From the NCBI GenBank assembly GCA_963836175.1, contig CAWIIS010000006.1:95213-159212 (forward strand): a stretch of DNA of 64,000 nt. Direction: 5' to 3'. The notes under the pieces were generated by a model. It was not told the origin of the DNA. It searched no databases and saw only the letters and a program-made list of their open reading frames with translations. This DNA is from Nitrospirota bacterium (GTDB lineage: Bacteria > Nitrospirota > UBA9217). The translations under genes were made by a program, and so were the position numbers. Below, one piece after another: positions 4,811-39,437 of the stretch (position 1 is the stretch's first letter; every line of letters starts with the position of its first letter).

Positions 4811-4897
4811 CGGAGATCGCGCCATGAACAATACTAGCGGAGCGAGTCTTCAACGCCCCTCAGCTGTTTCGCATACGCACTTGATGGAGCGGACCTC

Positions 4898-5698: not shown

Positions 5699-5759
5699 GT
5701 GGGGCGGAAAATAATAGCTTGGATATAAACGCTTGTGCCTGCTGCCCTTCGAATGCTTT

Positions 5760-6473
5760 TTACAATAAAACTTTCTCCAGCCGTTCCTTCCTCTTCGCCC
5801 AATCAGGCATGTATTTCGATAACAACTTGTAATACCCGTTATTATGCGTGTGTTCCTTTAGATGACACAGCTCATGCATTATTACATAATCGATGCAATA
5901 TAGGGGAGCTTTAACGAGGTCCGTGTTAAGCAGTATGTCACCGGCCTTGCTGCAACTCCCCCACCTCTTAGTCATTTTCTTCAATTTGACCACGGGATAG
6001 GGTACTTTTAGGCCCCTTGCGGTTTCATAGCATTGCTGTAAGCGTTTAGAGAATATTTCCCGTGCATGCTCCTGATACCATTCAGTAAGGAGACGTTTTA
6101 CCTTTTGCCTATTATCTGGCACAGGTGTCATTACTGAGAAATTGGGGCCTTTGAGCTTCACAACGTTGTCAGAATGTTTTTTTACTCTTAGCCTATATTG
6201 TCGGCCAAGAAACAGGTGGGTTTCTCCTCCGACATATCGCCGAGATGGAGTCCGCGGTTCGAACTGTCGAAAATAGTTTATCTGCTTCCTGATCCAGCGG
6301 GCTCGTTTCAGTACCCGCTTTTGTACAGCAGCGGGCGTTGTACCGATCGGTGTTTTTACCACTACCTTGCCATCGGGATGAACCGCGATTTCCATCGTTT
6401 TTCGATCTATGTACACAACATCATATACGATGCTCTGCCTGCCGTATGTAACACTATCGTTATAACCCGTCAT
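5760..6473 (-). CDS. DUF45/YgjP-type (M48-like) zinc metallopeptidase, translationally coupled to hsdR
   Basis: 237-aa ORF with HEXXH (VIMHELCHLKEHTHN). Its start overlaps the hsdR stop in ATGA (6470..6473). Confidence 0.8.
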   Translation of the reverse strand: MTGYNDSVTYGRQSIVYDVVYIDRKTMEIAVHPDGKVVVKTPIGTTPAAVQKRVLKRARWIRKQINYFRQFEPRTPSRRYVGGETHLFLGRQYRLRVKKHSDNVVKLKGPNFSVMTPVPDNRQKVKRLLTEWYQEHAREIFSKRLQQCYETARGLKVPYPVVKLKKMTKRWGSCSKAGDILLNTDLVKAPLYCIDYVIMHELCHLKEHTHNNGYYKLLSKYMPDWAKRKERLEKVLL

Positions 6474-9400: not shown

Positions 9401-9694
9401 ATCGTAAACAGCTTCATTGGTTTTCTGCGACCCATCCCACTTAACATTTTTTAGCTTCTGAATTGCAGACTGGATATTTTCTTCGCTGAATAGATACCCC
9501 TCTCCTTTGTACTGGATACGGTTGATTTGCTTAAGTTGTTTACGAAGAATTTCATCCAGCAGCACATTCCCAACCTTACCCTGACGCTCTGTCATGGATT
9601 GTTCGGGAGTTAAGTATTCAAATCCAAGGTTGATAATCTGTTGCAATGCTGGAATCTGAGAGAGGTATTTTTCATTAAATCGAAATCCTTCCAT
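6470..9694 (-). CDS. hsdR: Type I restriction enzyme R subunit (HsdR)
   Basis: 1074-aa intact ORF with an N-terminal nuclease region, SF2 helicase motifs (GSGKS Walker A, DEAH) and a long C-terminal helical domain. It lies downstream of hsdS with a TAATG overlap at 9694. Confidence 0.95.
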   Translation of the reverse strand: MEGFRFNEKYLSQIPALQQIINLGFEYLTPEQSMTERQGKVGNVLLDEILRKQLKQINRIQYKGEGYLFSEENIQSAIQKLKNVKWDGSQKTNEAVYDLLTLGTAQEQTVDGDSKSFTMRYIDWQDWKNNAFHVTAEFSVSRTRSDETARPDIVLFVNGIPFAVIECKSPKIEIKEAISQSIRNQQEDYIPKLFTYAQLVMGLNKNAAMYATAGTARKFWSVWQELQDKETEVETCIKKQLTPEVKDTLFSGDFAVARKFFDALEIEGGRQVTEQDKTIYSLCRPERLLDLAYKFIIFDGGIKKIARYQQYFVIKSTISRVKQIDVDGRRKGGIVWHTQGSGKSLTMIWLARNLALDKDIPNPRIILVTDRVDLDKQLGNTFSACGLDPHRAKTGRDLLELVSEKRATIVTTLIHKFDKALNVKKHQEESVDVFMLVDEAHRTQFKNMHARMRQMFPRACYLGFTGTPLMKKEKNNFIKFGGLIEPHYSIQQAVKDKSVVPLLYEGRHVEMVQNKQAIDLWFERHTQGLTKEQKADLKKKYARAEMLNKADKVIYMRAFDISEHFRANWQGTPFKAQLVTPSKLAALRYQACLNEFGHVTSEVVISPPDSREGYDEVDEEPNDEVIQFWKKMMKRYGSEEEYNKQITSQFLYAEEPEILIVVDKLLTGFDAPRNTVMYLCKTLREHSLLQAIARVNRLYEDETLGAEKEFGYIVDYASILGELDQALTMYAEAGLSDFDEKDLEGTLTSLNAEVAKLPQLYSDLWDLFKEVKNQHDEEAYEVLLSDDALRAEFYQRLADYSNVLGMALSAEDFIMKTPDGKLAQYKDDLKRFHNLKASVKLRYAETIDYRDFEPKIKKLLDTHIQANEVIRLNEPVNIFDESKFGQVKEEHGVYAVSKTTAAKADAIAHATKKVITEKMEEDPAFYERFSKLIQQAIDAFRAKRISDLEYLNRVTEIKNKIVTREHDDVPQSIKGNENAMAFYGVLKPLLINSGDGHSVEQLAVESANEIIAILDRNRKVNFWDDHDAQKRTMNEIDDYLYDGLKDKYSLKLTTEQMDEIIQQAMHLAQRRKIV

Positions 9695-10947
9695 TACGAC
9701 ACCTCCCTGACAGTCTTTATCCGCAACTCACCAGTAAGAAGCTTTTGCATTAGAGCGTTCTTTTGTTCTTTCAGCAATTCAAGGTTGCGCTGCAAGAGAT
9801 TAATTTCTTTCTGAGCAATTTCTAGCACGGCATTAATCTCTTCCTGTTCATTAAGATGTGGCAGCGGGACAGGTAGTTTAGAAAACTCATTCCACCGTAA
9901 ACTGCCACGGCGATCTACAGAAGCGCTGGTATTTGCTTCAAAGATGTGTCTGTATGTTTCGGTTTTAAGCATCTTATAAAGATAGCCGTCATTAACTTGC
10001 TTCTCATCCGTCCTGAAAACGGTGTACATCGGGCTAACCAGTCCGTTAGGGTATAGATTCTGATATCCGATAGAGCCTTCTTCAATGTGATTTGTGGCAT
10101 AGGCAAATTGACCATACTCAACTACTTTATACGTGGATGTGTCTTTGCTGAATATCTGTTTATCAAAGTACTTAAGTGAATCGACGAGTCCCTGATACTT
10201 AGTGCACGAAAGAACAGGGATAGCGCCACCATGACGATTTTTTGTGCTTATCTCTTTCGCGATTGAACCAAATATCACAATACTCCAGTCGTCCGGAATA
10301 GAAAACCACGGTTTCGTCAAACGCCCTTTCGTTTTTCTCCCTTTAAGCCGTACTTTTCCAAATAATAGCTTATGAGCTAAGTCCTTTTTGCGATGCTCCG
10401 TCGCCTCAATCAGCCTTTTTTCTTTTTCAATGGCAGTAGCCCAAGCTGAATTAATTTTTACAATCTCATCTTGCTCTTTTCTGCCCGGCAACCAAAGTTT
10501 ATATTGAGATAAATCTTTCCAATAAATGGCCGCCACGCTTGTACTTCCGGCCGCGAGCGTATTAAGTTGTTTCTTACCTTGTCCGTGCGTCATCTGCAGA
10601 CAAACAAAATCAGGGTTTACAGATCGATGAAAACGAACTCGAAGAAGATTGTTATCGAATGTTGCAGTAGCTTTTTCTCCATGCCAAACGGCAGTCTTGC
10701 CGACAAGTTCCATTGTGTTGCGGGTGTTAAATAGGAGGTCTCCACTTTCAAGATAGAATTCCTTAGGCACACTTTTTAGATCGATAGATTCAACATTAGC
10801 TAAAGCTAACGCCCCCCACCTTAAATTGCCCATCTTCAATAAGGGCATTGTGTCTGTCCCTGAGAACCCACGCGTTGTGATACCAAGGGTTGCAGCAATC
10901 GTTATTTCTTCAAATTTCTGAACTTTCCAGCCAGATGGCAACTTCAT
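9694..10947 (-). CDS. hsdS: Type I R-M specificity subunit, full length with two TRDs (HsdS)
   Basis: 417-aa ORF with two variable target-recognition regions separated by conserved coiled-coil spacers (EKEKRLIEATEHRKKDL and KEINLLQRNLELLKEQKNALMQKLLTGE). Confidence 0.9.
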   Translation of the reverse strand: MKLPSGWKVQKFEEITIAATLGITTRGFSGTDTMPLLKMGNLRWGALALANVESIDLKSVPKEFYLESGDLLFNTRNTMELVGKTAVWHGEKATATFDNNLLRVRFHRSVNPDFVCLQMTHGQGKKQLNTLAAGSTSVAAIYWKDLSQYKLWLPGRKEQDEIVKINSAWATAIEKEKRLIEATEHRKKDLAHKLLFGKVRLKGRKTKGRLTKPWFSIPDDWSIVIFGSIAKEISTKNRHGGAIPVLSCTKYQGLVDSLKYFDKQIFSKDTSTYKVVEYGQFAYATNHIEEGSIGYQNLYPNGLVSPMYTVFRTDEKQVNDGYLYKMLKTETYRHIFEANTSASVDRRGSLRWNEFSKLPVPLPHLNEQEEINAVLEIAQKEINLLQRNLELLKEQKNALMQKLLTGELRIKTVREVS

Positions 10948-11113
10948 TTATTACCCTCACTTTTCATCTTTTACCTGTTTCACTTTCTCTATTCCCTGCT
11001 AGATCTGCTTCAACTCCGGCATATCCTCCTGCTCTGCGCAAACCGCGCCGCCTCACATCATGGAAGTACTACCTTCGTTCATGAAGAGTATAAGCTCGCC
11101 TGCAGACACGCTT

Positions 11114-12632
11114 TCATATCGCGATCCCAAGCTCTTCAAGATAGTGCCTCATTTTTTTCCGCACCTCAGTCAATTCGACCTCAAGTTGCTCGATCTCTTT
11201 CTGGACTGCAGCCACATCTATCTTTTCCTCTTCCTCGAACGTATCCACATATCGCGGGATATTGAGGTTAAAATCATTTTCTCTTATCTCATCAAAAGTG
11301 GCGATGTGAGCGTATTTATCCACATCTTTACAGGCATTGTACGTAGCAACAATTTTTGCGATGTGCTCTTTCAAGAGAATATTACGAGTCTTTGCTGACT
11401 GGTAATCGTGGCTTGCATCGATGAATATTACATTTCGCTTTTTATCATTGACACCACCCTTCTCTCGGGAGCGGTCAAAAATTAAAATCGCTACTGGAAT
11501 AGATGTCGTAGGAAACAAATTTGCCGGGAGCCCCACGACTGCATCAAGTACATTATCCTCGATTAGTTTCTGGCGTATTCGGCCTTCTGCGCCTCCACGA
11601 AACAATACTCCATTCGGGACCACCACGGCCACACGTCCTTCTTTCTCAAGCGCCGCTTCCACCATGTGGCTGATAAAAGCATAATCGCCCTTGCTCTTGG
11701 GTGGAATACCGCGCCAAAAGCGGTTGAATCGGTCGCTCTCTGCTTCTGCAGCACCCCACTTATCAAGCGAAAATGGAGGATTGGCAACAACTATGTTGAA
11801 CTTCATGAGGCGATCTTTTTCTACCAATGCGGGATTGGTTAAAGTGTTGCACCATTCGATTCGAGCACCATCCATGCCGTGCAGAAACATATTCATACGG
11901 GCCAGCGCCCAGGTGCTGCCGTTCACTTCCATACCGAATAGCGCGAAGTCTCGACCACCGACCTCCTTAGCCGCCTCGATCAAAAGACCAGCTGAACCAC
12001 ATGCAGGATCGCAGATACGATCACCCGGCTTTCGGCCGGACAAGCCTGGCCAAAAGCTCGGACACCTTGTGCGGGGTATAGAACTCGCCGGCCTTCTTGC
12101 CGGCGTCAGAGGCAAAGCGTTCTATGAGGTAAATATACGTGTTGCCAATAACATCTTCGGAAACACGACTTGGACGCATATCGAGCTGGGGCTTATTAAA
12201 ATCTTCGAGGATATGTTTTAACAGGCGGTTCCTGTCCTTGGTCTTGCCGAGGTTCGACTCACTGTTGAAGTCGATATTGCGGAACACGCCCTCGAGTTTG
12301 GCTTTGTTCGCCTCTTCGATAGCGTCCAAGGCCACATTGATTATCTCGCCGATATTCGGTTCGCTTCGCTGATTATAAACGTCGTAAAAGCTTGCCCCTT
12401 TGGGCAATACGAATCGCTCCCGCCCTAGCTTCCGCCGGATGCGCTCATCATCATCGCCGTACTCTTTTTTGTACTCCTCATAATGATCCTGCCATACGTC
12501 AGAGATGTATTTCAGAAACAGCATCACTAGGATATAGTCCTTATACTGGGCCGGGTCCACCGGTCCCCTAAAGGTGTCACACGCCGCCCATGCGATATTA
12601 TTGATCTCTTCCTGCGAAACCTTTGTGGTCAT
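11114..12632 (-). CDS. hsdM: Type I R-M N6-adenine DNA methyltransferase HsdM, with one frame change near 12026..12034
   Basis: The N-terminal fragment is ORF 12021..12671 (HsdM_N-like, ends FYTPHKVSELLARLV). The C-terminal fragment is ORF 11114..12115 (DPACGSAGLL SAM motif, NPPF catalytic motif in VVANPPFSL). The likely start MTTKV at 12632 overlaps the stop of the upstream half-hsdS in ATGA. Confidence 0.9.
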
Positions 12633-13964: not shown

Positions 13965-14975
13965 CTAATATCTCAGCTCGTCGGCATACTCATATGAAAT
14001 AAACTGACGATCAGGAGTTTCAATATAGCCTTTCTCTTGATGCGAAAATTCGCTTATCGACGTCGACGTCATGTCTTTGAAATGCTCCTTTACCGAAGCG
14101 AGCAACTTCAATTCGGAGGTGGTGAATAATGACAAATCCGGCTTTTTGAGCGACGTAAGTTGTTCACCGGAATATCCTCCAGGATAAAATTCTTCAGTTA
14201 CGCCAATAGCATTCTCATCCACCAGTGTTGCAAAGTAATAATCATACTTGTCAGGAACTGGTCCGTAAGGATAGCGCGCATAGCGCATTCCCGTGATGGA
14301 CAAGCTGTAATCCTTGAAATGCTTGAAATCGGCATAGAAAAGAAGCTTGTTAAGCTTTGTTTTCAGTATGCCCCCTATGCAAAAGAATAGAATGGCATTT
14401 GTGAATTTTTCTATATCGAGCTTTCGATATCCGCTGAATTCATCAGGAGTATAGTGCCCAAAACGCTCTTCGTAAATGTTTTCAAAACTCCGGCTTTCCT
14501 CGTCCAAGGCTTTCAACTCTTTTATAAGCCGCTCCCCTTTTTCCGCGGAGCTGAAGGCCTCCGGGGTTTCTTCGATGAGCTTCAATAGATTATGCGGTTC
14601 CACGGCGCGCCGAAAAGCCTTCTCATGCGCCTCGTCCTGGAGCGCGCCGTTCTCGTAGCGGGAGAGCGTGGCTAAGCCCCAGCCCAGAAGACGACTCACC
14701 TCCTGCTGCGTGAGGCCGTACCTCTCGCGGCGTTCCCGGATCTCTTCGGGCTGGAGCATGCCGTGCCGCTTACGATATTCTCGATACGCTTGATTGATTG
14801 GATCAACAGTTGACTTGGGGGGCCTAAATTCGTTACCGCACTCTAAACACTTAAAATACTCGACATTCAATTCTATTGCTTCACCGCGAACCTTGAACTC
14901 TTCCTTCGTTTTAATTAATTCCGTATTCGTTTCTTTTTCACAGTTTAAACATATATTTTTCATAATATTCGTCAT
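13965..14975 (-). CDS. Fusion antitoxin: MqsA-like zinc ribbon plus XRE-type HTH, fused to a C-terminal Panacea (DUF4065/SocA-like) domain
   Basis: 336-aa ORF. The N-terminus has CLNCEK...CLECGNEF (zinc ribbon). This is followed by RERYGLTQQEVSRLLGWGLATLSRYENG (HTH, as in MqsA). The C-terminal half has KLNKLLFYADFKHFKDYSLSITGMRYARYPYGPVP, typical of DUF4065/Panacea. It lies 18 nt downstream of the toxin gene. Confidence 0.8.
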   Translation of the reverse strand: MTNIMKNICLNCEKETNTELIKTKEEFKVRGEAIELNVEYFKCLECGNEFRPPKSTVDPINQAYREYRKRHGMLQPEEIRERRERYGLTQQEVSRLLGWGLATLSRYENGALQDEAHEKAFRRAVEPHNLLKLIEETPEAFSSAEKGERLIKELKALDEESRSFENIYEERFGHYTPDEFSGYRKLDIEKFTNAILFFCIGGILKTKLNKLLFYADFKHFKDYSLSITGMRYARYPYGPVPDKYDYYFATLVDENAIGVTEEFYPGGYSGEQLTSLKKPDLSLFTTSELKLLASVKEHFKDMTSTSISEFSHQEKGYIETPDRQFISYEYADELRY

Positions 14976-17727: not shown

Positions 17728-20244
17728 GTGGACCTGCATAACCGTGAAGTGCCCTCCGCCGAACTCCGGCATGCCTGCGATCCCGCCGAATTCCCTTTTG
17801 AAACTACAGCGGAACTTATTCCCTCCGATGAGGTCATCGGCCAGGAGCGCGCAGTGACGGCCATCGAGTTCGGCCTCTCCATCACGAACCACGGATACAA
17901 CATCTTTGTGTCCGGCATTCCGGGCACCGGCAGAAATTCCATCGTCAGGTCCATTGTACAGCGGATCTCCCGGGAGCTGCCCGTGCCCGACGACTGGTGC
18001 TACATCAACAATTTCAAGGACCCCGACCGCCCGCGGGCCATCAAGCTCCCTCCGGGAAAAGGCGGCGAGTTCCGGCGCGACATGGAGAAGTTCATCGAGT
18101 TCATGCAGAGCGAGATCCCCAAGGTCTTCGAATCCAAGGAATACGAGGAACAGAAGACCGCGCATCGCCGACGAGGCGGAAAAGGCGAAGGAAGTCCTGT
18201 TCAGCGATGCCGCCCGGCTCGCCCTCGAACTCGGATTTCAACTTACGATCACGCGCACCGGCATCGTCAAGGTCCCGATGTGGAAGGGCAAGCCGCTCAC
18301 GCCCCAGGAACTGGAGACCCTCTCGCCGGAGCAGCGGCACGAGCTGGAAGACCACGAAAAAAAGGTGGACGCCGGGATCCGCGACTTTCTGTCCAAGGCG
18401 CGGCTGCTCGACAAGCAGGCGCACGAAAAGATCCATGAGCTGAACCGCCGGGTCGCGCACTTTTCCATGGGGCACCAGCTCGACGACCTGAAGGAAAAAT
18501 TCAGCGTCAACCCGCGCATTCCCGAATATCTCGCCGAAGTGGAAGAAGACATCCTGAGCAACCTGCGGGAGTTCCTGGGCCAGACGCAGGAGCTGCCCTT
18601 CCAGATCGAGGGCATGGACAAAGGGAGCTTTCTCGAGCGCTACAAGGTGAACGTCATCGTGGACAACGCCGGGACCAAGGGCGGGCCGCGTCGTCGAGGA
18701 GGTCAATCCTACCTACAACAACCTGGTCGGCCGCATCGAGCGCAAGGCGCGGTTCGGCGCATTCTTTACCAACTTCACCATGATCACGGTCCGGCTCGGT
18801 GCTCCAGGCCAACGGCGGGCTACCTGCTTTTGAACGCCATCGACGTGCTCCGGAGCCCCTTTTCCTGGGACGCGCTCAAGCGGATCATCAAGCGGCAGGA
18901 AGTAAAGGTCGAGGACGTCACCGAGCTCTACGGTTTTGCCACCGGAGGCATCAAGCCCGAACCCATCCCGGTGTCGCTCAAGATCATCATGCTCGGCAGC
19001 CCCTGGCTCTATTACCTGCTCTATCAATTACGATGAGGACTTCAGGGAGATCTTCAAGGTCAAGTCCGACTTCGACACCCGGACCCCGGGTTCAAAGGAC
19101 GAAACCCTGCGGTACGCGAATTTTGTCGGCAGGACCGCGAAGAGCGACGGACTGCTCCCTTTTGACCGGAGCGCTGTCGCCGGCATTGTGGACCACGCCA
19201 CGCGGCTTGCCGAAAAAAAGAACAAGCTCTCGCTCCGCTTCAGCGAACTGTCGGACCTGGTGCGCGAGGCCTCGTACTGGGCTGTGAAGGCGGGGAGTTC
19301 CGTGGTTACCGGCGTCCACGTGGACAAAGCGCTGGACCAGAAGATTTACCGGTCGAACCTGCTCGACGATCGCATCCAGGAGCTGTTCGCCGAGGGCACT
19401 CTGATGGTCGATGTCTCCGGTTCAGCAGTCGCGCAGGTGAACGGGTTGTCCGTCTACGACATCGGCGATTTTTCTTTCGGCAAGCCGTCGCGCATCACCA
19501 GCCGCGTGTACCTCGGCAAAGCCGGCGTCGTCGACATCGAGCGCGAAGCAAAGCTTTCGGGCCGCATCTACAACAAAGGCGTGCTGATCCTGTCGGGCTA
19601 TCTCGGCGGCGCCTTTGCCCGGGACAAGACGCTTTCGGTCTCGGCTAGCCTTGCCTTTGAGCAGAGCTACGGCGAGATCGAGGGCGACAGCGCCTCGGCG
19701 GCCGAGCTGATCGCGCTGCTCTCGGGCATCGCCGAAGTGCCGGTCAGGCAGGACCTCGCCATCACCGGCTCGGTCAACCAGAAGGGCGAGATCCAGCCCA
19801 TCGGCGGCGGTGAACGAGAAGATCGAGGGTTTCTTCAGCGTCTGCAGAAACCGGGGATTGACCGGCGACCAGGGCGTGATCATTCCGCAGCTCAATGTAA
19901 AGAACCTCATGCTCAAAAAGGACGTGGTCGAGGCGGTCAAGGAGGGGAAGTTCCGGATCTATGCCGTCACGACCGTGAATGAGGCGCTGGAACTTCTGAC
20001 GGGCATGCCGGCAGGCGAGCGGAAGGATGACGGCGCCTATCCCGAAGGCTCGGTCAATTTTCTGGTGGACAAGCGGCTTCGCGAGATGTCGAAGAAACTG
20101 AAGGCCGAAGACAAGGGAGAAGAGAAAAAAAGAAGGAAGAAAATGATGATGCCGCACCGAAGAAGGACCCGGGGCCAATGCCGTAGAACGGCCCGGCAAA
20201 GGATCAGGGAGCGCTTTCTGACATTTACCGTTATGCGGCTTTAG
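17728..20244 (+). CDS. Lon-like AAA+ serine protease (COG1067/LonB-LonC-type), split over four overlapping frames
   Basis: Four fragments cover the gene. ORF 17728..18438 has Walker A (SGIPGTGRNS). ORFs 17906..19036 and 18936..19982 carry the S16 protease domain (GDSAS). ORF 19810..20244 carries GVIIPQLNVKNL. The exact stop is uncertain. Confidence 0.8.
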
Positions 20245-30084: not shown

Positions 30085-30308
30085 CGTCGCCGAAAGACTA
30101 CTGCTTTGATCTTGCCGGGCGGCCCTCTGAGGCCGCCCGGTAATGCCTGACTTTATCTACGAAAATCTGCGCTCATCTGCGGCCAATGGTCGTGTTTTTG
30201 GTTCATTCTTCTCCTTGCCATCGGTTAATCCTTACTGGTTTTTTCTGCCCCAAAACACCCTTTCTGCTGCAAAATCCTTGACTTTTCCGCCCTAAGTTGT
30301 TATTTTAC

Positions 30309-31951
30309 ATGGCTACGTTCGTCGAACGCAGCAACTCTACCATGGACTATTCAGACGAAATACAGAAACGGCGCACCTTCGCCATCATCAGCCACCCCGA
30401 CGCGGGAAAGACCACGCTGACCGAGAAGTTCCTGCTCTTCGGCGGCGCGATCCAGGTGGCCGGCGCGGTGAAGTCGAACAAGATCCGGAAGAGCACCTCC
30501 TCGGACTTCATGGACATCGAGCGCCAGCGCGGCATCTCCGTTGCCACGTCGGTCATGGGCTTCGACTACAACGGGCTCAAGATCAACCTGCTCGACACGC
30601 CGGGGCACAAGGATTTCGCCGAGGACACCTACCGCACGCTGACCGCCGTGGACAGCGTCATCCTCGTCATCGACTGCGTCAAGGGCGTGGAAGAGCAGAC
30701 CCTGCGGCTCATGGAAGTCTGCCGCATGCGGAACACGCCGGTCATCATCTTCGTGAACAAGCTCGACCGCGAAGGCAAGGACCCCTTCGAGCTGCTGGAC
30801 GAGCTCGAAGTGAAGCTGAACATCAAGGTCCAGCCGCTCTCCTGGCCCATCAGCATGGGCACGTCCTTCAAGGGCGTGTACAACCTCTACAACAACAGCC
30901 TCCACCTCTTCCGTGCCCGGCGGCGTCAACCGTGCAGACCGACGTGCTGGAGATCAAGGGCATTGCCGACCCGGTGCTGGACCAGCAGCTCGGCGACTAT
31001 GCGGTCAAGCTCCGGGAGGACGTGGAGCTGATCGAAGGCACGCACAATCCCTTTGACGTGCAGGCCTATCTGCAGCGGCGAGCTCGCGCCGGTCTTCTTC
31101 GGCAGCGCCATCAACAACTTCGGCGTCAAGGAGCTCCTGGACACCTTCACCGAGATCGCGCCCACGCCCGGCAGCCGCCCCACGGACCAGCGCATCGTCA
31201 ACGCCGACGAAAAGGACTTCACCGGGTTCGTGTTCAAGATCCACGCGAACCTGGACCCGCGCCACCGCGACCGCATCGCCTTTATCCGCGTCTGCTCGGG
31301 CAAGTTCGAGCGGAACAAGATGTTCCTCCACGTGCGCCTGGGCAAGAACATCCGCTTCACCAGCCCGGCGAGCTTCCTGGGCGCCAGGAAGAGCATCGTG
31401 GACGAGGCCTTCCCGGGCGACGTGATCGGCCTGTACGACACGGGCAACTTCAAGATCGGCGACACCCTCACCGAAGGCGAGAAGCTCATGTTCCAGGGCA
31501 TCCCGACCTTCTCTCCCGAGGTGTTCAAGGAGCTGGTGAACCTCGATCCGGGCAAGTCCAAGCAGCTCGCCAAGGGCATCGAGCAGCTCACCGACGAAGG
31601 CGTGGCCCAGCTCTTCACCCAGCAGCAGGGCAACCGCAGGATCGTGGGCACCGTGGGCCAGCTGCAGTTCGACGTGCTCCAGTACCGGCTGGAGCATGAG
31701 TACAACGCCAAATGCAGCTTCGAATCCATGGACATCTACAAGGCATGCTGGATCACCGCGACAGACAACGCGGAGATGGAGAAGTTCTGCCAGGTTCAAG
31801 TCGGACCGCATCGCCACGGACAAGGACGGCAACATGGTGTTTCTCGCCGAGTCGGAATGGGTGCTCCGGAACATGATCGAGGCTTACCCGGACGATCAAG
31901 TTCCACTTCACGTCGGAGTTCAAGCGGGAGATGCAGGAAGTAAAGAAGTAG
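30309..31951 (+). CDS. prfC: Peptide chain release factor 3, with several frame changes
   Basis: ORF 30297..31031 matches the PrfC N-terminus ([29 protein letters not shown]). ORFs 31053..31943 and 31696.. carry domains II-IV. The C-terminus ends at TAG 31949..31951. The alternative start is ATG at 30343. Confidence 0.9.
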
Positions 31952-32162
31952 GCCGGTTCTATTATTTCGCGGATAACCACAGATCAGCTTCACCAGCGCT
32001 ATTTCAACCTGCCTCAACTATTTCAGTCAAAAATTGCCCTGCCTTTTGCAAAAAAATACACAATTGACAGTGTCACTGGATTCATCAAGTCTTTCTTCCT
32101 CTCCGTTGCCACGGCATTCAACGCCTGTTCATAAAGCTCAGAACGACCGGAAACATCTTGAA

Positions 32163-33527
32163 TTATTCAAGGTTGTCGAACGTTGCCGGTACGATGTTTG
32201 AAAGCGCGGGGAATATATGCATACATCCGGTGATGGATTCAACATCGGCCTTGTGCATGATCGCATTGGCGACTTCCTGAATGAGCGTTGCGGCATGCGG
32301 GCCGATGATATGAAAACCCAGGATCCTTCTTGTGTCCTTTTCGACAACGGCCTTTGTGAAACCCTTGTGCTCCATCATTGCCTCTCCCATCACCGTATCG
32401 GAATATAAGGTGCGGCCCACGAGGATCTTGTGATCGTGCCGGGCCTGCCGTTCTGTCAGGCCCGCGGATGCTATCTGCGGATGCGTATAGACCGCATAGG
32501 GGACGGACTCAAAATCCATGCTGATCTGTTTTTTGTGCCTGGCGTTGTGCCATGCCAGTTCAGCCTCCTTGTCTCCGGCATGGGTAAACATTTTTCTACC
32601 GATGGCATCGCCAAGCGCCCAGATGTGCTTTTTGTTCGTCCTGAGATACTTGTCGATCTTTATGAAACCGGCCTTGTCCGTCTCTATACCCGCATTTTCC
32701 GTTTTCAGCAGATCGGCGTTGGATCTCCTGCCTGCATTGACCATCACGTGCGACGCGGAGATCCTTTTTCCCCGTCCGGTTCTGACATCCTTTGCCAGCA
32801 CGGTATACCCGTTGCCGCCCCGTTGTATTTCCATTGTCTCGGCACCCATATGCAGTTCGATGCGTTTTTCCAATTCCCGTTTTAACAGCCTGGATATCTC
32901 CGGTTCACCAAAAGGCAAAAGCGCTGGGTTCCTGTCAATGAGCTTGACCTTCACACCCAGAGCAGAGAAAAAATGCGCATATTCAAGCGATATGAATCCG
33001 CCTCCGATAAGGATGATGCTGTCGGGCCTGCTTGCGAGTCCCAGGACGCTTTCGTTGGTCAGGAAAGGGATCTTATCAAGCCCCTTGATCGGGGGAACCA
33101 ATGGCCGCGCACCGGTGGCTAGAAAGATCTGTTTGCCTCTGATCTTATGGCCACCGGCTTCGAGGGTATGCTCATCGATGAAACGCGCCTCTTTGTTTAT
33201 GAACTCGAGATTCCCGGTCTCCTTTATCGCCTTTTTTATGGAGTCTCTGCCCCTGGCGACGACCCTTCTCGTCCGCTCCATGACTGCGTTGAAGTTGACA
33301 TCGATCGTTCCCGAACGGATGCCGAACTTTGTATTTTCTCGTGTTTCGATCATTCTGTCCGCAGTATAGATAAGCGTTTTAGAAGGTACACAACCGCTGT
33401 TAACGCACGTTCCGCCTGGATGTCCCTTATCGACAAGGGCAACGTTCAGACCTCCTGAAACTGCTTTAAAGGCGATTCCCAGGCCGACGTCGCCCGCGCC
33501 AACGACGATAACATCATATGCCTTCAT
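32163..33527 (-). CDS. Class I pyridine-nucleotide-disulfide oxidoreductase (dihydrolipoamide dehydrogenase / mercuric reductase-like)
   Basis: 454-aa intact ORF with FAD GxGxxG (VVGAGDVG), the redox-active disulfide GGTCVNSGCVPSK, NAD-binding GGGFISLE and a C-terminal dimerisation domain. Confidence 0.85.
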   Translation of the reverse strand: MKAYDVIVVGAGDVGLGIAFKAVSGGLNVALVDKGHPGGTCVNSGCVPSKTLIYTADRMIETRENTKFGIRSGTIDVNFNAVMERTRRVVARGRDSIKKAIKETGNLEFINKEARFIDEHTLEAGGHKIRGKQIFLATGARPLVPPIKGLDKIPFLTNESVLGLASRPDSIILIGGGFISLEYAHFFSALGVKVKLIDRNPALLPFGEPEISRLLKRELEKRIELHMGAETMEIQRGGNGYTVLAKDVRTGRGKRISASHVMVNAGRRSNADLLKTENAGIETDKAGFIKIDKYLRTNKKHIWALGDAIGRKMFTHAGDKEAELAWHNARHKKQISMDFESVPYAVYTHPQIASAGLTERQARHDHKILVGRTLYSDTVMGEAMMEHKGFTKAVVEKDTRRILGFHIIGPHAATLIQEVANAIMHKADVESITGCMHIFPALSNIVPATFDNLE

Positions 33528-33560
33528 GGCCCACCCCTTCGCCGCAGCGGCGATCAGCCC

Positions 33561-34094
33561 TTATTCCGAGGCAAGATCAGCTTCCAGGTCTATAAAAAGC
33601 TGGACCTCCCTGCTCACCATGATGCCGTTATTCGCCATCGGCTGATTCCACATGATCCCGTAGTCTTCACGGTTTATTATGGCTGATACTGCAAAGCCCA
33701 TGCTTGATCCGTCGCCGAGGGGGTCGTCTACCGGCCCTGAAAATTCTACCGAGGCGGTTATCTGACGTGTTATACCGTGGATCGTCAAGTCGCCGCTCAC
33801 TTGTGCCTTGTTGCCGTTCACTGCCTGTATCCTCGTAGAGGTGAACGAGATGGTGGGATATTTATCGACCTCAAGGAAATCCGCGCTTTTCAAGTGGTCG
33901 TCGCGTTTCTGGATCCCCGTAAATATGCTTGATGCGTCGATGGACAGTTCTATTGAAGAGTTGGTAATGTTCAGCGGATCAACATAAACGGTCCCTCCAA
34001 CTTTGCAGAACTGGCCCCGAACATTAGCGATCATCATGTGGCGGACTGAAAATGCCGCTCCCGAGTGGTCAGGGTCTATGATCCATTTCGACAT
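33561..34094 (-). CDS. YceI-family (polyisoprenoid-binding-like) protein, no signal peptide
   Basis: 177-aa ORF with WIIDPDHSGAAFSVRHMMIANVRGQF...LTIHGITRQI, a typical YceI pattern. Confidence 0.85.
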   Translation of the reverse strand: MSKWIIDPDHSGAAFSVRHMMIANVRGQFCKVGGTVYVDPLNITNSSIELSIDASSIFTGIQKRDDHLKSADFLEVDKYPTISFTSTRIQAVNGNKAQVSGDLTIHGITRQITASVEFSGPVDDPLGDGSSMGFAVSAIINREDYGIMWNQPMANNGIMVSREVQLFIDLEADLASE

Positions 34095-34116
34095 TGGTCA
34101 CTCCTTTTTTATTGTT

Positions 34117-35163
34117 TTACTCACGCAGAAAACACTGCGGATCTTCGGCCAGGTAATTGGTACTGCCATGAGCGCGTGCAAATTCATAGGCTATTGCCCT
34201 GCAGCCCCTGCATGCCATCCATTTGTTGCAGCTGCCGCATTTCCCCTCATATCGGGACCTGTCCCTGAGTGAGGTCAAGACCTCTGATGTAGACCATATC
34301 TCCCTCAGGGAGTCTGTTCTGACATTTCCCAGGGAAACAGGAAGCCTTCTGCAGGGAGTCACCGTCCCGTCCGGCAGGATCGTCAACCCCGAGACGCCTG
34401 CAGCGCATCCGCCGGAGGGAAAGGAGCCGGCATCATCTGTACCCGCCGGTCTTCTGAATTGTGACGCGACGGGATCACCGGTGACGATCTTCAGGTTGCC
34501 GGTATTCAGCGAGAATATCCTGCCGTACAGCTCTTCCAGGACCTCCTTCGTCAGCATTTTGTTCAATAAATTTCTACCGCTTCCCGACGGTACCAGCCTC
34601 GAAAATCCCAACCTCTGAACGCCGATCGAAGAGGCGAGGTCTATCACGTCGAGAAAATAGGTCGCATTTATATCGGAAAGCGTCGTATTCATGGTCACTT
34701 CTATTCCCGCGTCAAGGAGGCATTGTATACCGAAAAGGGAACGCTTCAGACTTCCCTTGCCTCTTATTGCGTCGTGGATCTCCTCGGGACCCTCAATGCT
34801 TACCTGGACCCCTTTTACACCCAGCCGGGAAAGGACCACAGCCTTATCCTTCGTGATGAGTGTCCCGTTCGACAGCAGATAGGCATCAATTCTTTTATCG
34901 GCAAGTTCTTCCAGTACAGGAAAAATATCCTGCCTCAGGAACGGTTCTCCGCCGGTTATATTGAAACTGGAGGAAAAAGAAACATCATAGGCCGCTGACC
35001 ACTCCCCGAGCATATCGGCGACTTCACCTATGACACTTCGTATCTCCGCCAAGGACATCTCATCCGAGCTCTTTCCGGATTGATAGCAGTGCGTACAGGC
35101 AAGGTTGCATCTCTCCGTAAGATGCAGCTGAATGAAAAATTCCAGGGTATTGTTTATTGACAT
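34117..35163 (-). CDS. Radical SAM enzyme with a C-terminal SPASM/twitch domain
   Basis: 348-aa ORF with CX3CX2C (CNLACTHCY), GGEPFL, and C-terminal Cys clusters (GGCAAG...PCRRL...CGSCNKWMACRGCRAIAY). Confidence 0.9.
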   Translation of the reverse strand: MSINNTLEFFIQLHLTERCNLACTHCYQSGKSSDEMSLAEIRSVIGEVADMLGEWSAAYDVSFSSSFNITGGEPFLRQDIFPVLEELADKRIDAYLLSNGTLITKDKAVVLSRLGVKGVQVSIEGPEEIHDAIRGKGSLKRSLFGIQCLLDAGIEVTMNTTLSDINATYFLDVIDLASSIGVQRLGFSRLVPSGSGRNLLNKMLTKEVLEELYGRIFSLNTGNLKIVTGDPVASQFRRPAGTDDAGSFPSGGCAAGVSGLTILPDGTVTPCRRLPVSLGNVRTDSLREIWSTSEVLTSLRDRSRYEGKCGSCNKWMACRGCRAIAYEFARAHGSTNYLAEDPQCFLRE

Positions 35164-35325
35164 TGGTTTTTGATGAGCTGAATTCAGGGTTTACAACGGA
35201 CAGTATTGCCCAAGGGTATTGAAAGACCAGGCAGATATGATGATCGTACCGATATCGCCCTCAGGGATCATGCATATCTGCCTTTTTTCGCTGCCGAACC
35301 GGCAGTTTCAGCTCTTTCAGCCCTT

Positions 35326-35430
35326 TCACTTGTGACATGTCATCCCAGGATGGTCTTGTGCAGACTTTTTGAGATTAGCCCAGAAAGCAGCCTCTTTTGC
35401 GAGGTCCTTTGCCGACAATGTCTTCTTCAT
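35326..35430 (-). CDS. 34-codon small ORF (MKKTLSAKDLAKEAAFWANLKKSAQDHPGMTCHK), candidate precursor peptide
   Basis: Hand-translated from the minus strand. AGGAGGTGA lies 7 nt before the ATG, and a strong sigma70-like promoter lies upstream. It is the first cistron before the radical SAM gene. It falls below the ORF-track length cutoff. Confidence 0.45.
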   Translation of the reverse strand: MKKTLSAKDLAKEAAFWANLKKSAQDHPGMTCHK

Positions 35431-35493
35431 CCTTCTTTCACCTCCTTTCCGCCTAAAAGGTTATTGATACAAATAGAAAATCCTATATTACAT

Positions 35494-35523
35494 ATAGTAT
35501 GGCTGCTTTTTGCCTTTTGTCAA
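35494..35523 (-). promoter_or_regulatory. Sigma70-type promoter for the small ORF / radical SAM operon
   Basis: Minus strand: TTGACA (35523..35518), an 18-nt spacer, then TACTAT (35499..35494). Confidence 0.6.
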
Positions 35524-35586
35524 ATACCCGGAGGTCAGCCATCTTGACGCGACAGTGCATTAAACGAACTGCGGGTAATAATCCCG

Positions 35587-37212
35587 TCATCGGCTCAATC
35601 TGGTAACCTCCTGTTCGAAGCCGGGGAGAATCGCTTTGAAATAGGCGTTCTTGATGAGTTGACCAATGATCTGGAGAGTACTGGCCTTAGGACTCTCCAC
35701 CGGCCCGGCAATGTCGGCCTTGGTTGCAACCTCCCCTCGGGGCCTGTTTTCAAGAAGCTTGGCGACTCCGCCAACCAGCCTCTCGTACATCTTATGAAAG
35801 GCGCTTTTTTCCGTCTCTTTTCGCTTATCGTACACCTTCATGTCTCTGAACAGAGGTTTAACGTAGCCGGAGATGGCGTTGTTCTTGACATGCAGCTGGG
35901 TATAGAATGAAAAAAAACCGGCAGTGACGTCGAAATTTCCGTAGGCCCGAAGCAGATCGTTCATGGCAGTCAGCTTTGTATCGTCGATTTTAAGATCGAT
36001 ATCGAAATCGGGTCCTTGTAATTCCGGCCGGAAGTGTGCCACCGCAGTCGTATTCCCGCTTCCCATGAATTTTCCCCGAAGCCGCGCTTCGGCAGGACCT
36101 TCTGCAAACTGGTTGGACAGATTACTAAGATGAACATCGGCGTCGGCGATGAAGACACGGTAAGGCGGACTGACGCCCTTATTGATCATGCCGATGGTGC
36201 TTCCGGTCAGGTCCAACTGGTCGAGCCGAAGCAGAATACCCGGCTCGTTGCTGACTGCGGCCGCCGCCGTTTTGACTTCGGTGGCGCGTCTTCTTTCCAC
36301 GGCTGCGGTACCCGTCGTGTGGATGTAATCGACTTCCAGGTTTTTAATCGTAAGGTCTTTCACGTGGGCTGTCTTTACTTTCGGGGCATATTCCGCACTG
36401 CCTGAAGCGAAGAATTCACCGTTGCGTATCGACAGATTTGCGCGGGCGAATACCGGCTTGAAATAGTCAAGCGGAACCTTTTCGAGCTTGAAATCGGCCT
36501 TTACTCCCGGAACCGGTTCAGCCAGGAAGTTAGCGTTGCCGTCAACGACTCCATAGCCGGTATCGAAAATTACCGTTTCCAGGTGGAACGAGGAGGGATA
36601 GGCCTTGTCCGGCGAATGGATATTGCGGATGTTTTCTGCCTGCAGCTTTATGCGACTCAGGTGAAGAGGGCGATCCGGATCCTGATCGATATAAACGACA
36701 TCTCCATTTGTTATCGTCAGGAGGTTGATCTTCAACGGGTAAATGTCTTCTACTGCCTGCTGCCATCCGCGTTCCTTGACCGGTGTTTCACTTTCGGCTT
36801 CCGCGCGGAGCTGCTGCAGGTTGATGTGAATTTTCGGCTGGTCGATATCAAACTCGGCAACCAGTTTTCCTGACAATACTCGTCGCCAGTGAATACTTGC
36901 TTTCAGGAACGGGAATTCAGCGACGGGAGGGGTGGGGTGTGCCTGTTGAGAAACGGTCAGCCCTTTCAAAGTGATAGATAGTCCTATCAACTGGAAATGC
37001 AATCCCGACAACCGCACGGAGTACCCTTTCAGATGACGGTTCATGTTCATTTCCATGGATTCTCTGAGCGGCTTGTCCAGAAAAAACGATGCGATGAAAA
37101 GAATCAGCAGAAGGCCGCCAAGTACGGCGGCGGCCCGAAGTAACCACTTGGGAATCGAGTTGATTATTCTTAAGCCCGGATTTCCCGCACCTTCCCGTCC
37201 CTGCTGTGCCAT
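35587..37212 (-). CDS. DUF748-domain (AsmA-like) membrane-anchored protein
   Basis: 541-aa intact ORF with an N-terminal TM segment (LLRAAAVLGGLLLILFIASFF) and a long beta-rich body resembling DUF748 proteins. Confidence 0.6.
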   Translation of the reverse strand: MAQQGREGAGNPGLRIINSIPKWLLRAAAVLGGLLLILFIASFFLDKPLRESMEMNMNRHLKGYSVRLSGLHFQLIGLSITLKGLTVSQQAHPTPPVAEFPFLKASIHWRRVLSGKLVAEFDIDQPKIHINLQQLRAEAESETPVKERGWQQAVEDIYPLKINLLTITNGDVVYIDQDPDRPLHLSRIKLQAENIRNIHSPDKAYPSSFHLETVIFDTGYGVVDGNANFLAEPVPGVKADFKLEKVPLDYFKPVFARANLSIRNGEFFASGSAEYAPKVKTAHVKDLTIKNLEVDYIHTTGTAAVERRRATEVKTAAAAVSNEPGILLRLDQLDLTGSTIGMINKGVSPPYRVFIADADVHLSNLSNQFAEGPAEARLRGKFMGSGNTTAVAHFRPELQGPDFDIDLKIDDTKLTAMNDLLRAYGNFDVTAGFFSFYTQLHVKNNAISGYVKPLFRDMKVYDKRKETEKSAFHKMYERLVGGVAKLLENRPRGEVATKADIAGPVESPKASTLQIIGQLIKNAYFKAILPGFEQEVTRLSR

Positions 37213-37227
37213 CTTCCCTCCGTGTCG

Positions 37228-37458
37228 TTATGCAGCGTGGGTCTTGCTTCCAGCCTTACTGGTAGACCTGCTGCTCCTTTTGCCTGAGGGTGGTGGCACC
37301 TTAACCCCTTTACTCCTGGCTTCCGACAAGCCGATCGCGATTGCCTGTTTCGGGTTTCTCACTTTTTTTCCGCTTGCGCCGCTTTTCAGCTTGCCTTCCT
37401 TCATCTTTTCCATCGCCCGTTTCACGGCCGTCTGAGCTTCTTTTCCGTAGCGAGCCAT
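37228..37458 (-). CDS. Small basic conserved protein (DUF6496-like)
   Basis: ORF 37228..37536. The likely start is MARYGKEAQ, after AAGGAGG. The pattern AVKRAMEKMKEGKLKSG..GKKV.NPKQAIAIGLSEARSKG is typical of this family, as far as I remember it. Confidence 0.55.
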   Translation of the reverse strand: MARYGKEAQTAVKRAMEKMKEGKLKSGASGKKVRNPKQAIAIGLSEARSKGVKVPPPSGKRSSRSTSKAGSKTHAA

Positions 37459-37729
37459 TTTAACCTCCTTCAGGTCGCTTTCTTCATCAGAAGGTCTAAA
37501 GCGCGCCTTTCTCGCACTCTTCCAATCTTCAAACAACAGCCGGGGATTCAGCTGATCGTATATCCCCGGCCGGAAATCAGTTCCGCTTATCGTGTGCGCG
37601 TTACGCAGCCTTGGTTTTCACTTCAGCCTTGGATCCTACATCCTGGGCACCGGTGCGCACCAGTATTTCCTTCGCTTTCTTTTTTAAAGCTTAATGTGGA
37701 AACGCATCCTTTGTATGCGTATGCAGCTG

Positions 37730-37945
37730 CTATGCAGCCTTTTTACTCTTGCGTCTTGCCATGAAATTGTCATACTCCTTCATGGCCTCATCCCGCGAGT
37801 AACCATACCGTTTTTGCAGGCTCCCGATCAGTTTTTCAGATTCGCCTTCTATCTGAGTCAGATCGTCGTCAGTCAGCTTACCCCATTGGACTTTGACCTC
37901 TCCTTTGATCTTCTTCCATTCGCCTTTGAGAATATCTGTGTTCAT
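37730..37945 (-). CDS. CsbD-family stress-response protein
   Basis: ORF 37730..37996. The likely start is MNTDILKGEWKK, after GAGGAGG. The CsbD signature is KGEVKVQWGKLTDDDLTQIEG....LIGSLQKRYGYSRDEA. Confidence 0.85.
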   Translation of the reverse strand: MNTDILKGEWKKIKGEVKVQWGKLTDDDLTQIEGESEKLIGSLQKRYGYSRDEAMKEYDNFMARRKSKKAA

Positions 37946-38417
37946 AGTTACCTCCTCTAGAATTTGGATTAATTTACTTACTTTTATTCTTCCCAAAAAT
38001 CATCTATAAGTCAAGACGCAATAAGTATGAAACATGCGGTCCGTGTGCCCAAGGTTGCACATACCTCGGGCATTCGGATAGATTAGACTCATGGGCAACT
38101 CTAAGAAAATTAGAAAAACAGGATTATCCCGCGGCAAAAGCTTAGTGCTTCGAGCATAAATTTTAGAGGATCGGGCTGTTGCGTAATGCAGGACTGGAAG
38201 ACTCGGGTCTTCGGCATGAAGCTGAATGTGATTTGCAGATCGTGTATTGACTCAGAGTAGCATTGCTGTCAGCATCAAAGATTGGACCCCACATGTCCTA
38301 CAGAACAACTCAATCTTTAAGTCTGATAATCATATGAAGGCACCTCAGCATACCAGAGCGCCTCGGCACTCTGGTATGCTTCAAGGAAAGAGTCCAATCT
38401 AACCTTGGAGGTGCTGT

Positions 38418-39437
38418 ATGAAATTGTACACGAGTTTTGACCTGCATTCAAACAATTCGTATCTCGGCATTAAGGATGAAAATGGCAAGCCTGTATTCAG
38501 GAAGAAACTGCCGAATGATCCCGAAATTATTCTCAATGCGCTTAAACCACATAAAAACGATATCGTCGGGATCGTCGTCGAGTCCACCTACAACTGGTAC
38601 TGGCTGGTCGATCTGCTTATGGCAGAAGGATACGTGGTTCATCTTGCCAATCCGTCAGCAATCCAGAAGTACTCAGGACTCAAACATGCTGATGATCAGG
38701 ACGATGCTTTATGGTTGTGTGAAATGCTTCGGCTCGGTATCTTGCCCGAGGGATACATCTATCCCAAGGATGACCGGCCGGTACGCGATCTTCTGCGAAA
38801 ACGCATGCACCTGGTGAGACTGCGGACCTCACTCATCGTGAGCCTGCAGAACATCCTCAGCCGAAACAACGGATTTAAGCTCAAAACAGCTGATGTCAAA
38901 GCGTTGAGCGAGGATCGGGTAGCTCCATATCTTTCGGCAAACGAGGACCTTGCTCTATCTGGGACCGTCAGTAAAGAGTCCATCGATTTTCTGACGCGGC
39001 AAATCAAAAAGATCGAGGCCATAATAGAAAATAAGGTTGAACTGACACATCCTTACGAGAAACTGCAAAGCGTATTCGGGATCGGCAAGATTCTGGCTCT
39101 TACCATCATGCTGGAAACCGGCCCGATCAGCCGCTTTGCCAAAGTCGGCAACTACGTATCCTACTGCCGGAAAGTTTCGACCAAATGGCTTAGTAACGAC
39201 AAGGTGAAGGGTAAAGGGAACAAGAAAAGCGGCAATAAGTATCTTGCATGGGCCTATTCCGAGGCGGCCGAACACGCACGGCGCCACTACACACAGGCCA
39301 GGACATACTACAATCGCAAGATGCAGAAAACCAACTTTATGACCGCGCACAACGCCCTTGCGCACAAACTGGCGAGAGCATCATACTACGTCATGCGTGA
39401 TGAGGTGAACTTTATGCCGGAGAAAATCTTCGTATGA
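38418..39437 (+). CDS. IS110-family (DEDD) transposase/recombinase
   Basis: 339-aa intact ORF. The N-terminal RuvC-like region is FDLHSNNSYLGI...GIVVESTYNWYWL. The C-terminal Tnp domain is GIGKILALTIMLETGPISRFAKVGNYVSYCR...SGNKYLAWAYSEAA. RBS is GGAGG. Confidence 0.9.
   Translation: MKLYTSFDLHSNNSYLGIKDENGKPVFRKKLPNDPEIILNALKPHKNDIVGIVVESTYNWYWLVDLLMAEGYVVHLANPSAIQKYSGLKHADDQDDALWLCEMLRLGILPEGYIYPKDDRPVRDLLRKRMHLVRLRTSLIVSLQNILSRNNGFKLKTADVKALSEDRVAPYLSANEDLALSGTVSKESIDFLTRQIKKIEAIIENKVELTHPYEKLQSVFGIGKILALTIMLETGPISRFAKVGNYVSYCRKVSTKWLSNDKVKGKGNKKSGNKYLAWAYSEAAEHARRHYTQARTYYNRKMQKTNFMTAHNALAHKLARASYYVMRDEVNFMPEKIFV

Follow-up and report, generated by a model that had tools for sequence, protein, structure and literature searches.

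A predicted two-selenocysteine peptide gene paired with a radical SAM/SPASM enzyme gene in a Nitrospirota bacterium and its orthologous loci

In the literature searched, only one natural selenocysteine (Sec, U) peptide is handled by a radical S-adenosylmethionine (SAM) enzyme, namely SbtA/SbtM (TIGR04081/TIGR04082; Lewis et al. 2021, PMC9204691), in which a short ribosomal peptide with two Sec residues and a Sec insertion sequence (SECIS) are found beside a radical SAM/SPASM enzyme in anaerobic Desulfobacterota/Geobacter-type organisms. The product of SbtM is a thio(seleno)oxazole at Gly-Cys/Sec, and this has been called the first SeCys-containing ribosomally made, post-translationally modified peptide (RiPP) that a radical SAM enzyme installs (PMC9204691). 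The enzymes PapB and Tte1186 accept Sec for Cys, and the Sec or Cys of the substrate ligates the auxiliary cluster (PMC10177961). Among the 119 prokaryotic selenoprotein families inventoried in 2026 (PMC13188914) there is no CxxUxxU peptide, the only radical SAM-linked peptide there being the 'selenobacteriocin' SbtA, and none of the families of Haft & Tolstoy 2025 (mSystems), as tabulated in the same inventory, fits the locus described here. This locus lies in a 64-kb stretch of DNA from a Nitrospirota bacterium (the window; coordinates below are window positions and (-) denotes its minus strand). It most likely represents a new selenopeptide-maturase pair, that is, an unannotated and widely conserved peptide with two predicted Sec residues and a radical SAM/SPASM enzyme of its own; the computed comparisons support its gene structure, its recoding signals with their fit to a SECIS, the conserved linkage and the enzyme class. 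The features that make up the pair are as follows.

35308..35430 (-): predicted selenopeptide gene, 40 codons plus stop, product MKKTLSAKDLAKEAAFWANLKKSAQDHPGMTCHKUKGUKS
35328..35326 and 35319..35317 (-): predicted Sec codons (UGA), from in-frame conservation
35310..35308 (-): terminating TGA of the peptide gene, from in-frame reading
35291..35305 (-): SECIS-like hairpin CUGCCG-GUU-CGGCAG, from covariation in alignment A1 and fit to the bacterial SECIS (bSECIS) model
35230..35282 (-): long terminator-like hairpin with arms GGCAGAUAUG / CAUAUCUGCC and a weak U-rich tail at 35229..35221, from folding
34117..35163 (-): radical SAM/SPASM enzyme, 348 aa (PF04055 2.7e-19, PF13186 9e-13; CX3CX2C at C19/C23/C26)

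The preliminary description of this DNA had placed an open reading frame (ORF) of 34 codons at 35430..35326 (-), and it is there with the translation stated, but its end did not hold: after the TGA at 35328..35326 the frame runs on as AAG GGC TGA AAG AGC TGA, and the pattern is kept in 37 of 37 loci. These are the window and the 36 peptide-bearing members of a set of 39 loci (L001-L039) obtained by scanning species-representative genomes for orthologues of the radical SAM enzyme (46-91% identity), which come from Nitrospirota, Desulfobulbaceae, Geobacter, Syntrophorhabdales and Dissulfurispiraceae; all peptide and hairpin counts below refer to the 37. The general pattern is TGA-NNN-NNN-TGA-AAR-AGY/TCC/ACT and then an in-frame stop. 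Counting the first TGA as codon 0, this codon is TGA in 37/37 loci, codon +1 encodes Lys (31 AAG, 3 AAA) with Ser or Glu in 3, and codon +2 encodes Gly or Ser (GGC 19, GGT 7, AGT 7, AGC 4). At codon +3, 36 loci have TGA and L038 has TGC (Cys); all loci have Lys next (codon +4; AAG 32, AAA 5), followed at codon +5 by Ser or Thr (AGC 22, AGT 7, TCC 3, ACT 5). The frame stops at codon +6 with TAA or TAG (16 loci) or with TGA (10 loci), and the other 11 add one to three sense codons before stopping, all insertions in tail length being whole codons. Because serine switches between AGC and TCC, third positions change and insertions respect the codon, the stretch is better explained as translated than as an RNA motif. 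Conserved coding flanks the in-frame UGA on both sides in all 37 loci, and E13, W17, C32, K34, U35, U38 (Cys in L038) and K39 are invariant. In this ORF two UGA codons are thus most likely decoded as Sec, giving a 40-residue peptide that ends in C-x-x-U-x-x-U-K-S. It should be noted that TGA serves as an ordinary stop elsewhere, closing 5 of the 17 window genes checked. The only exchange of Sec for Cys in the family is that at the second site of L038 (4840-4860; relative: L017), the first Sec being replaced in no locus. As for the Cys, said earlier to lie four residues from the C-terminus, it is actually the third residue from the annotated end. Two other interpretations of its surroundings were ruled out, a single-Cys heme-attachment 'CH' motif because 12 of 37 loci carry Arg, Gln or Leu instead of the His, and an HMA-like GMTCxxC motif because GMTC is restricted to the window and L002 (other loci have GK[VTL]C). 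The tail is longer in L033 from Geobacter (4866-4900; U-K-S-U-K-S-G-S, then TGA) and in L036 (4237-4260; U-K-G-U-K-S-G, then TGA). We read this last TGA as the stop since it lies 2 nt before the hairpin stem in L033 and on its first base in L036, a third Sec at this place being possible.

The first hairpin after the gene, a 6-bp stem given earlier as CTGCCG-GTT-CGGCAG at 35305..35291, is present, but the role of attenuator proposed for it gives way to that of a SECIS-like element, which its spacing, loop and covariation fit instead. It starts 2 nt past the true stop in the window and 0-11 nt past it in all loci (1-3 nt in most). In alignment A1 of the 37 loci, 98.6% of the cells of its six stem pairs are paired and 20 cells are changed on both sides; 0 of 500 shuffles match this, and slid control alignments are 17-61% paired. 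Compensatory changes are evident in the individual pairs, one of which is CG in 25, UA in 11 and AU in 1, and another UA in 28, CG in 5 and AU in 1. The loop is GGUC (17), GUU (7), GGUCA (5) or GUC (4) in 33 of the 37 loci, the stem has 6-7 bp, and in 34 of 37 the loop lies 16-18 nt from the second UGA and 25-27 nt from the first. The hairpin GUUGCCGGUCGGCAAC also resembles the mini-SECIS of E. coli fdhF, GGUUGCAGGUCUGCACC. The bSECIS model (PMC13188914) has a loop of 3-9 nt with G in its two initial positions, a stem of 4-16 bp, a distance of 16-37 nt from the UGA and a minimum free energy (MFE) of at most -7.5 kcal/mol. Loop, stem and spacing fall within these bounds, and so does the MFE, which was measured on a 43-nt stretch holding the SECIS-like hairpin plus a second small stem and is -12.7 kcal/mol for both together. 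A single SECIS-like hairpin would serve both UGA codons, and UxxU selenoproteins with two Sec residues do appear in the inventory (PMC13188914).

On searching the orthologous loci with tblastn, a small ORF homologous to the 34-aa peptide was found just upstream of the radical SAM gene in 36 of 39, with the consensus MKK-LSK--L-KEAAFW---KKA-KENPGK-C[HR]K. That homologous enzyme genes in other genomes should be preceded by such an ORF with the same tail was a test set beforehand, and on this ground we take the pairing of a short precursor gene with a radical SAM/SPASM gene to be real and conserved. From the proposed order of short peptide, attenuating hairpin and SPASM maturase it is therefore the pair that survives, without the attenuator and with a different peptide length. 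Clustering of all ORFs in 40 loci returned only the radical SAM enzyme (40), a YceI-family protein (15) and a reductase (5) as recurrent, so that peptide and enzyme form the sole conserved core. The remaining neighbours vary between loci (DUF255 thioredoxin-like, B12-radical SAM, rubredoxin-reductase-like, FMN reductase, ChaN and dienelactone hydrolase), and no conserved protease or transporter/exporter was found in the 39 neighbourhoods. In L004 (3403-5001) the peptide and enzyme genes are 1.5 kb apart, with a 434-aa ORF without Pfam match on the opposite strand between them, which may be an insertion.

A profile search of a collection of 5.8 billion proteins matched 147 clusters (90% identity), and all 120 of those listed are unnamed or 'hypothetical protein' entries that cover the first 34 residues or fewer. 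No match to NCBIfam (release of June 2026) or Pfam was found for the 34-aa or 40-aa form of the peptide, with U written as C or X; the sole NCBIfam match of an extended peptide at E <= 10 was a chance one of 12.7 bits by one homologue. Our literature searches yielded nothing on the peptide/radical SAM family, and the pairing appears to be absent from the family libraries and literature checked. One database entry, P0242, has the same gene called with TGA as Trp and ending in CHKWKSWKSW (CHKWKSWKSWSCRSATRH). Some pipelines use a UGA-sense genetic code on such contigs, and because of this code the entry reads past both the Sec codons and the true stop.

The enzyme has the CX3CX2C motif and a seven-Cys SPASM domain, which makes it a member of the radical SAM/SPASM class, and ten of its Cys residues (19, 23, 26, 253, 271, 309, 312, 318, 321, 344), among them all three sets that bind clusters, are invariant in 30 homologues. 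Thousands of homologues exist, the nearest from Nitrospirota/Thermodesulfovibrionales, and several family members carry the JGI label 'AdoMet-dependent heme synthase'. When scored against the cut-off of each family model, the enzyme reaches none and no NCBIfam model claims it: AhbD (TIGR04545) gives 182 bits against a cut-off of 500, NirJ2 (TIGR04055) 180 against 500, ACGX 161 against 400, GeoRSP 142 against 400, MftC 130 against 265, SbtM (TIGR04082) 129 against 350, PqqE 80 against 381, SkfB 73 against 300, PapB 70 against 340 and AlbA 64 against 850. As these scores are far below the cut-offs of the named families, no function transfers from them. The nearest solved folds to an AlphaFold2 model searched with Foldseek are SkfB (closest), MoaA, anSME, PqqE and SuiB, which places the enzyme only generically in the SPASM/Twitch group, the SPASM part of the model being of low confidence.

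Of the known systems SbtA/SbtM is the nearest, and the similarities go beyond the two Sec residues, the SECIS and the adjacent enzyme, since in most loci Gly directly precedes the second Sec (K-G-U) as at the G-U site of SbtA. However, neither partner is recognized by the models of that family. The SbtM model has 516 positions against 348 aa in our enzyme and is matched only over 199-515, leaving the first ~200 positions uncovered, at a score well below its cut-off; the window peptide matches no NCBIfam model including TIGR04081, and it places C-x-x-U-x-x-U-K-S at the very C-terminus where SbtA has GGUG/SGUG. The peptide-enzyme family described here is also frequent in Nitrospirota. The thioether-forming SPASM maturases PapB, Tte1186/SCIFF, QhpD and the sactisynthases (such as SkfB and AlbA) share the radical SAM plus SPASM fold and, as predicted for the pair described here, a short peptide substrate with a reactive Cys, and PapB and Tte1186 bind Sec, offered in place of Cys, at the auxiliary cluster (PMC10177961). 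Yet the window enzyme is far below the family cut-offs and lacks a RiPP recognition element (RRE), and in the window peptide Sec is native and apparently obligatory, with no CxxxD/E-type acceptor motif. AhbD and NirJ resemble the enzyme in giving the best NCBIfam scores over its full length, in their similar size and in also lacking an RRE, but they remain apart from it by their 500-bit equivalog cut-offs and by the tie of our enzyme family to a selenopeptide in 36 of 39 loci. To our knowledge, AhbD and NirJ have no associated peptide gene. The 'UXX-star'/UxxU families (NF041114, NF041211, NF041115; PMC13188914) resemble the peptide in having Sec three residues from the C-terminus (U-K-S-stop) and a UxxU pair for which a single SECIS apparently suffices, and proposals for those families include redox and metal-binding roles; the window peptide matches none of these models and is a stand-alone 40-mer tied to a radical SAM enzyme. 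With the pyrroloquinoline quinone (PQQ; PqqA/PqqE) and mycofactocin (MftA/MftC) systems the locus shares a conserved small precursor with reactive residues at the C-terminal end, an adjacent radical SAM/SPASM gene, the lack of an exporter and, in some genomes, a redox enzyme in the operon. It differs in having no PqqD/MftB-like chaperone or peptidase as a neighbour and in using Cys/Sec rather than Glu-Tyr or Val-Tyr, and the MftC and PqqE scores given above fall short of the cut-offs.

A second hairpin with perfect 10-nt arms had been reported further downstream, and it was found at 35282..35230 with -29 kcal/mol (z = -4.9; 0 of 200 shuffles equal it). An equivalent hairpin stands between the peptide gene and the radical SAM gene in most loci, with a T-rich tail or a T-run inside the stem, and in 17 of 37 loci 5 or more of the first 8 nt past the stem are T. 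The T-tract of the window itself is weak (4 T in 8), and a terminator scan did not list the site. As judged from the loci together, the hairpin behaves like an intrinsic terminator between the two genes. The base of the hairpin, GGCAGAT(A/G)TG / CA(T/C)ATCTGCC, is conserved in sequence across phyla and its apical part is free in length and sequence; it may be a protein-binding or processing site because it is more conserved than a plain terminator requires. Attenuation through pairing of the SECIS with a terminator arm was also considered, since both hold GGCAG in the window, and was discarded because the likeness fails in other loci. Upstream of the gene, the Shine-Dalgarno sequence and promoter were found where they had been reported.

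35438..35446 (-): Shine-Dalgarno AGGAGGTGA, 7 nt from the ATG
35494..35523 (-): sigma-70-like promoter match, TTGACA (35523..35518), 18 nt, TACTAT (35499..35494), 10/12, consensus match only

The GGAGGTGA ribosome-binding site recurs, exactly or as a close variant, at the equivalent position in most of the 37 loci. The promoter match is one of only 4 in 3.9 kb and shuffles yield roughly as many, so taken alone it is weak evidence; 22 of 37 loci have a match of at least 10/12 at a distance of 31-69 nt upstream of the start codon of the peptide.

The content of the downstream operon (radical SAM/SPASM, YceI and class I pyridine nucleotide-disulfide oxidoreductase) is borne out by Pfam/NCBIfam profiles, and the gaps between the three genes measure 22 and 33 nt as claimed.

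33561..34094 (-): cytoplasmic YceI-family protein, 177 aa (PF04264 4.4e-47)
32163..33527 (-): class I pyridine nucleotide-disulfide oxidoreductase, 454 aa (CVNSGC redox centre plus HxxxxE; best NCBIfam model NF004947, 500 bits against a cut-off of 592)

The YceI protein indeed has no signal peptide, the Pfam domain beginning at residue 4. It directly follows the radical SAM gene in 19 of 39 loci by tblastn (15 by clustering) and stands between peptide and enzyme genes in L036. Orthologues of the reductase are in the operon in only 5 of 39 loci (L001, L002, L006, L007 and L010), all close relatives of the window. The two proteins, which had been proposed as parts of the system, are accessory and lie outside the conserved core. 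In L010 (6663-8026) the reductase orthologue is in three pieces in different frames, which reflects either a pseudogene or sequencing errors.

On balance we favour a locus consisting of a small selenoprotein gene and a radical SAM/SPASM enzyme that most likely modifies its product. What we infer is that Sec is inserted and that the enzyme uses the peptide as its substrate, together with the chemistry and with what YceI and the reductase do, as follows. A strong ribosome-binding site and a promoter-like site would drive the 40-codon gene, whose two in-frame UGAs would be decoded as Sec with the help of the SECIS-like hairpin 2 nt past the true stop. The product, MKK...KEAAFW...NPG-x-x-C-H-K-U-K-G-U-K-S, would have a helix-like N-terminal half for recognition and a C-terminal Cys/Sec/Sec triad at i, i+3 and i+6, and the terminator-like hairpin would let only part of the transcripts reach the radical SAM gene, leaving the peptide in excess of the enzyme. 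By analogy with SbtM, PapB and Tte1186, Sec or Cys of the tail may be bound at the auxiliary [4Fe-4S] cluster while the 5'-deoxyadenosyl radical takes hydrogen from the tail, with an Se-C/S-C cross-link or an oxidized or heterocyclized Sec as the possible outcome. These are the likely chemistries because ligation has precedent in PapB/Tte1186 and SbtM oxidizes the Sec Cbeta. As no protease or exporter is conserved nearby, the product would probably remain intracellular, as a selenopeptide that is redox-active or binds metal. The clade of the window would have added the cytoplasmic YceI barrel and the CVNSGC flavoprotein disulfide reductase, the latter plausibly keeping a selenylsulfide or diselenide reduced.

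Several observations count against a selenopeptide modified by its neighbour. None of selA, selB, selC and selD was seen within the 64-kb window, and a search of the window and the 39 flanks for Sec machinery or tRNA-Sec found none. Sec is commonly used by Desulfobacterota. In Nitrospirae, selB/selC have been described (PMC13188914). An Rfam E-value scan of 31500..38500 gave no match to a riboswitch, leader or SECIS family. Nearly all selenoprotein families have Cys homologues, and an all-Cys form was found neither among the 120 listed matches (Cys-tail profile) nor among 108 representatives in an exhaustive hidden Markov model (HMM) search, the extra matches of which were irrelevant eukaryote-type WxxW-repeat proteins. 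Three loci (L008, L018 and L021) have no peptide gene within 5 kb of the radical SAM gene; as they form a single clade nested among peptide-bearing loci, the gene was lost or moved there. The radical SAM gene of these three (~5001..6047, 56-60% identical) lies between a gene for a holin-superfamily-IV membrane protein and argS. The cluster motif of the enzyme begins at residue 19, Radical_SAM and SPASM are the sole domains identified in it, and it thus has no N-terminal RRE or PqqD domain; no RRE is encoded in the vicinity either, where no small neighbour is conserved. Finally, the enzyme scores best against the profiles of two tetrapyrrole enzymes, AhbD and NirJ2, with the peptide maturases (ACGX, GeoRSP, MftC, SbtM) slightly lower. 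This last result, together with the absence of an RRE, protease and exporter, also speaks for an alternative that is unlikely but deserves serious weight, in which the Sec peptide is real without being a substrate and is instead the partner of a radical SAM enzyme acting on a non-peptide molecule (such as a tetrapyrrole, lipid or isoprenoid). The peptide could then donate electrons or selenium, or use its CxxUxxU triad to carry metal or selenium. If the molecule were a lipid or isoprenoid, YceI, whose family has been described as binding such compounds, would hold it. Conservation of the whole peptide and not of a core alone is what one would expect of such a small protein, and the frequency of YceI and the recurrence of redox flavoproteins nearby agree with it. 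However, AhbD and the other named families score far below their cut-offs, the tight two-gene linkage with a short Cys/Sec peptide is the known pattern of radical SAM/SPASM maturases, and we know of no small Sec-peptide subunit of any radical SAM enzyme, though no search for one was made.

The layout, in which a short ORF with two UGAs is followed by a SECIS, by a strong hairpin that in most loci has a U-tract and by an operon, would also suit a selenium-sensing leader, in which stopping or read-through at UGA sets the terminator and so controls the radical SAM operon, the peptide being functionless. We regard this as very unlikely. The amino-acid sequence is conserved over its full length, the invariant E13, W17, C32, K34 and K39 included, and a terminating ribosome would not reach the terminator stem because the true stop is ~25 nt upstream of it. 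No alternative pairing of SECIS and terminator arm is conserved across loci, and the peptide gene is separated from the enzyme gene by the opposite-strand ORF in L004 and by YceI in L036. Taking the TGA at 35328..35326 as a genuine stop, with a 34-residue, one-Cys peptide and an RNA element only in the bases that follow, agrees with every gene caller, all of which close the ORF there, and with the Sec machinery being unseen within the window. This option is scarcely tenable in view of the codon periodicity downstream, with its synonymous AGC/AGT/TCC and GGC/GGT changes and whole-codon insertions, the in-frame TAA, TAG or TGA that always follows, the second TGA being TGC in L038, and the hairpin at SECIS spacing with a G[G/U] loop. 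A bolder extension of the favoured selenopeptide-maturase pair, which seems to us rather improbable, is that the product of the cassette is a prosthetic group derived from a peptide and based on selenium. The radical SAM enzyme would turn the obligatory C-x-x-U-x-x-U tail into a selenium redox centre or a metal-binding centre that is kept in the cell, with the CVNSGC flavoprotein recycling it and the YceI barrel handling it. If true, PQQ and mycofactocin would be joined by a third kind of peptide cofactor of radical SAM origin, and this would be the first that needs selenium.

The predicted pair would add a second, unrelated family to SbtA/SbtM, distinguished by two Sec residues and a Cys in a fixed triad. 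It is also more widespread, with its 147 clusters spread across Nitrospirota, Desulfobulbaceae, Geobacter and Syntrophorhabdales. That no sulfur-only version was found suggests that selenium is essential to the product. Since public databases end the peptide after residue 34, it escapes both selenoproteome censuses and the tools used for RiPP mining. With only two genes and ~1.4 kb, the system makes Sec chemistry in nature directly testable, as well as the question of why subsurface anaerobes spend selenium on a 40-mer.

Elsewhere in the window, prfC (peptide chain release factor 3; 30297..31943 on the plus strand) is split into three overlapping ORFs, 30297..31031 in frame 0, 30932..31699 in frame 2 and 31053..31943 in frame 0, which corresponds to two compensating frameshifts ~130 nt apart. 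Other genes look broken as well, e.g. the LonB-like region at 17728..19982, and these could be due to assembly error or to real decay. Further features, at 6470..12115 (-), 13965..14975 (-) and 38418..39437 (+), are the hsdR, hsdS and hsdM genes of a type I restriction-modification system, an antitoxin gene of the SocA/Panacea-MqsA-like kind and, upstream of the DUF748 gene, an ORF that looks like a transposase.

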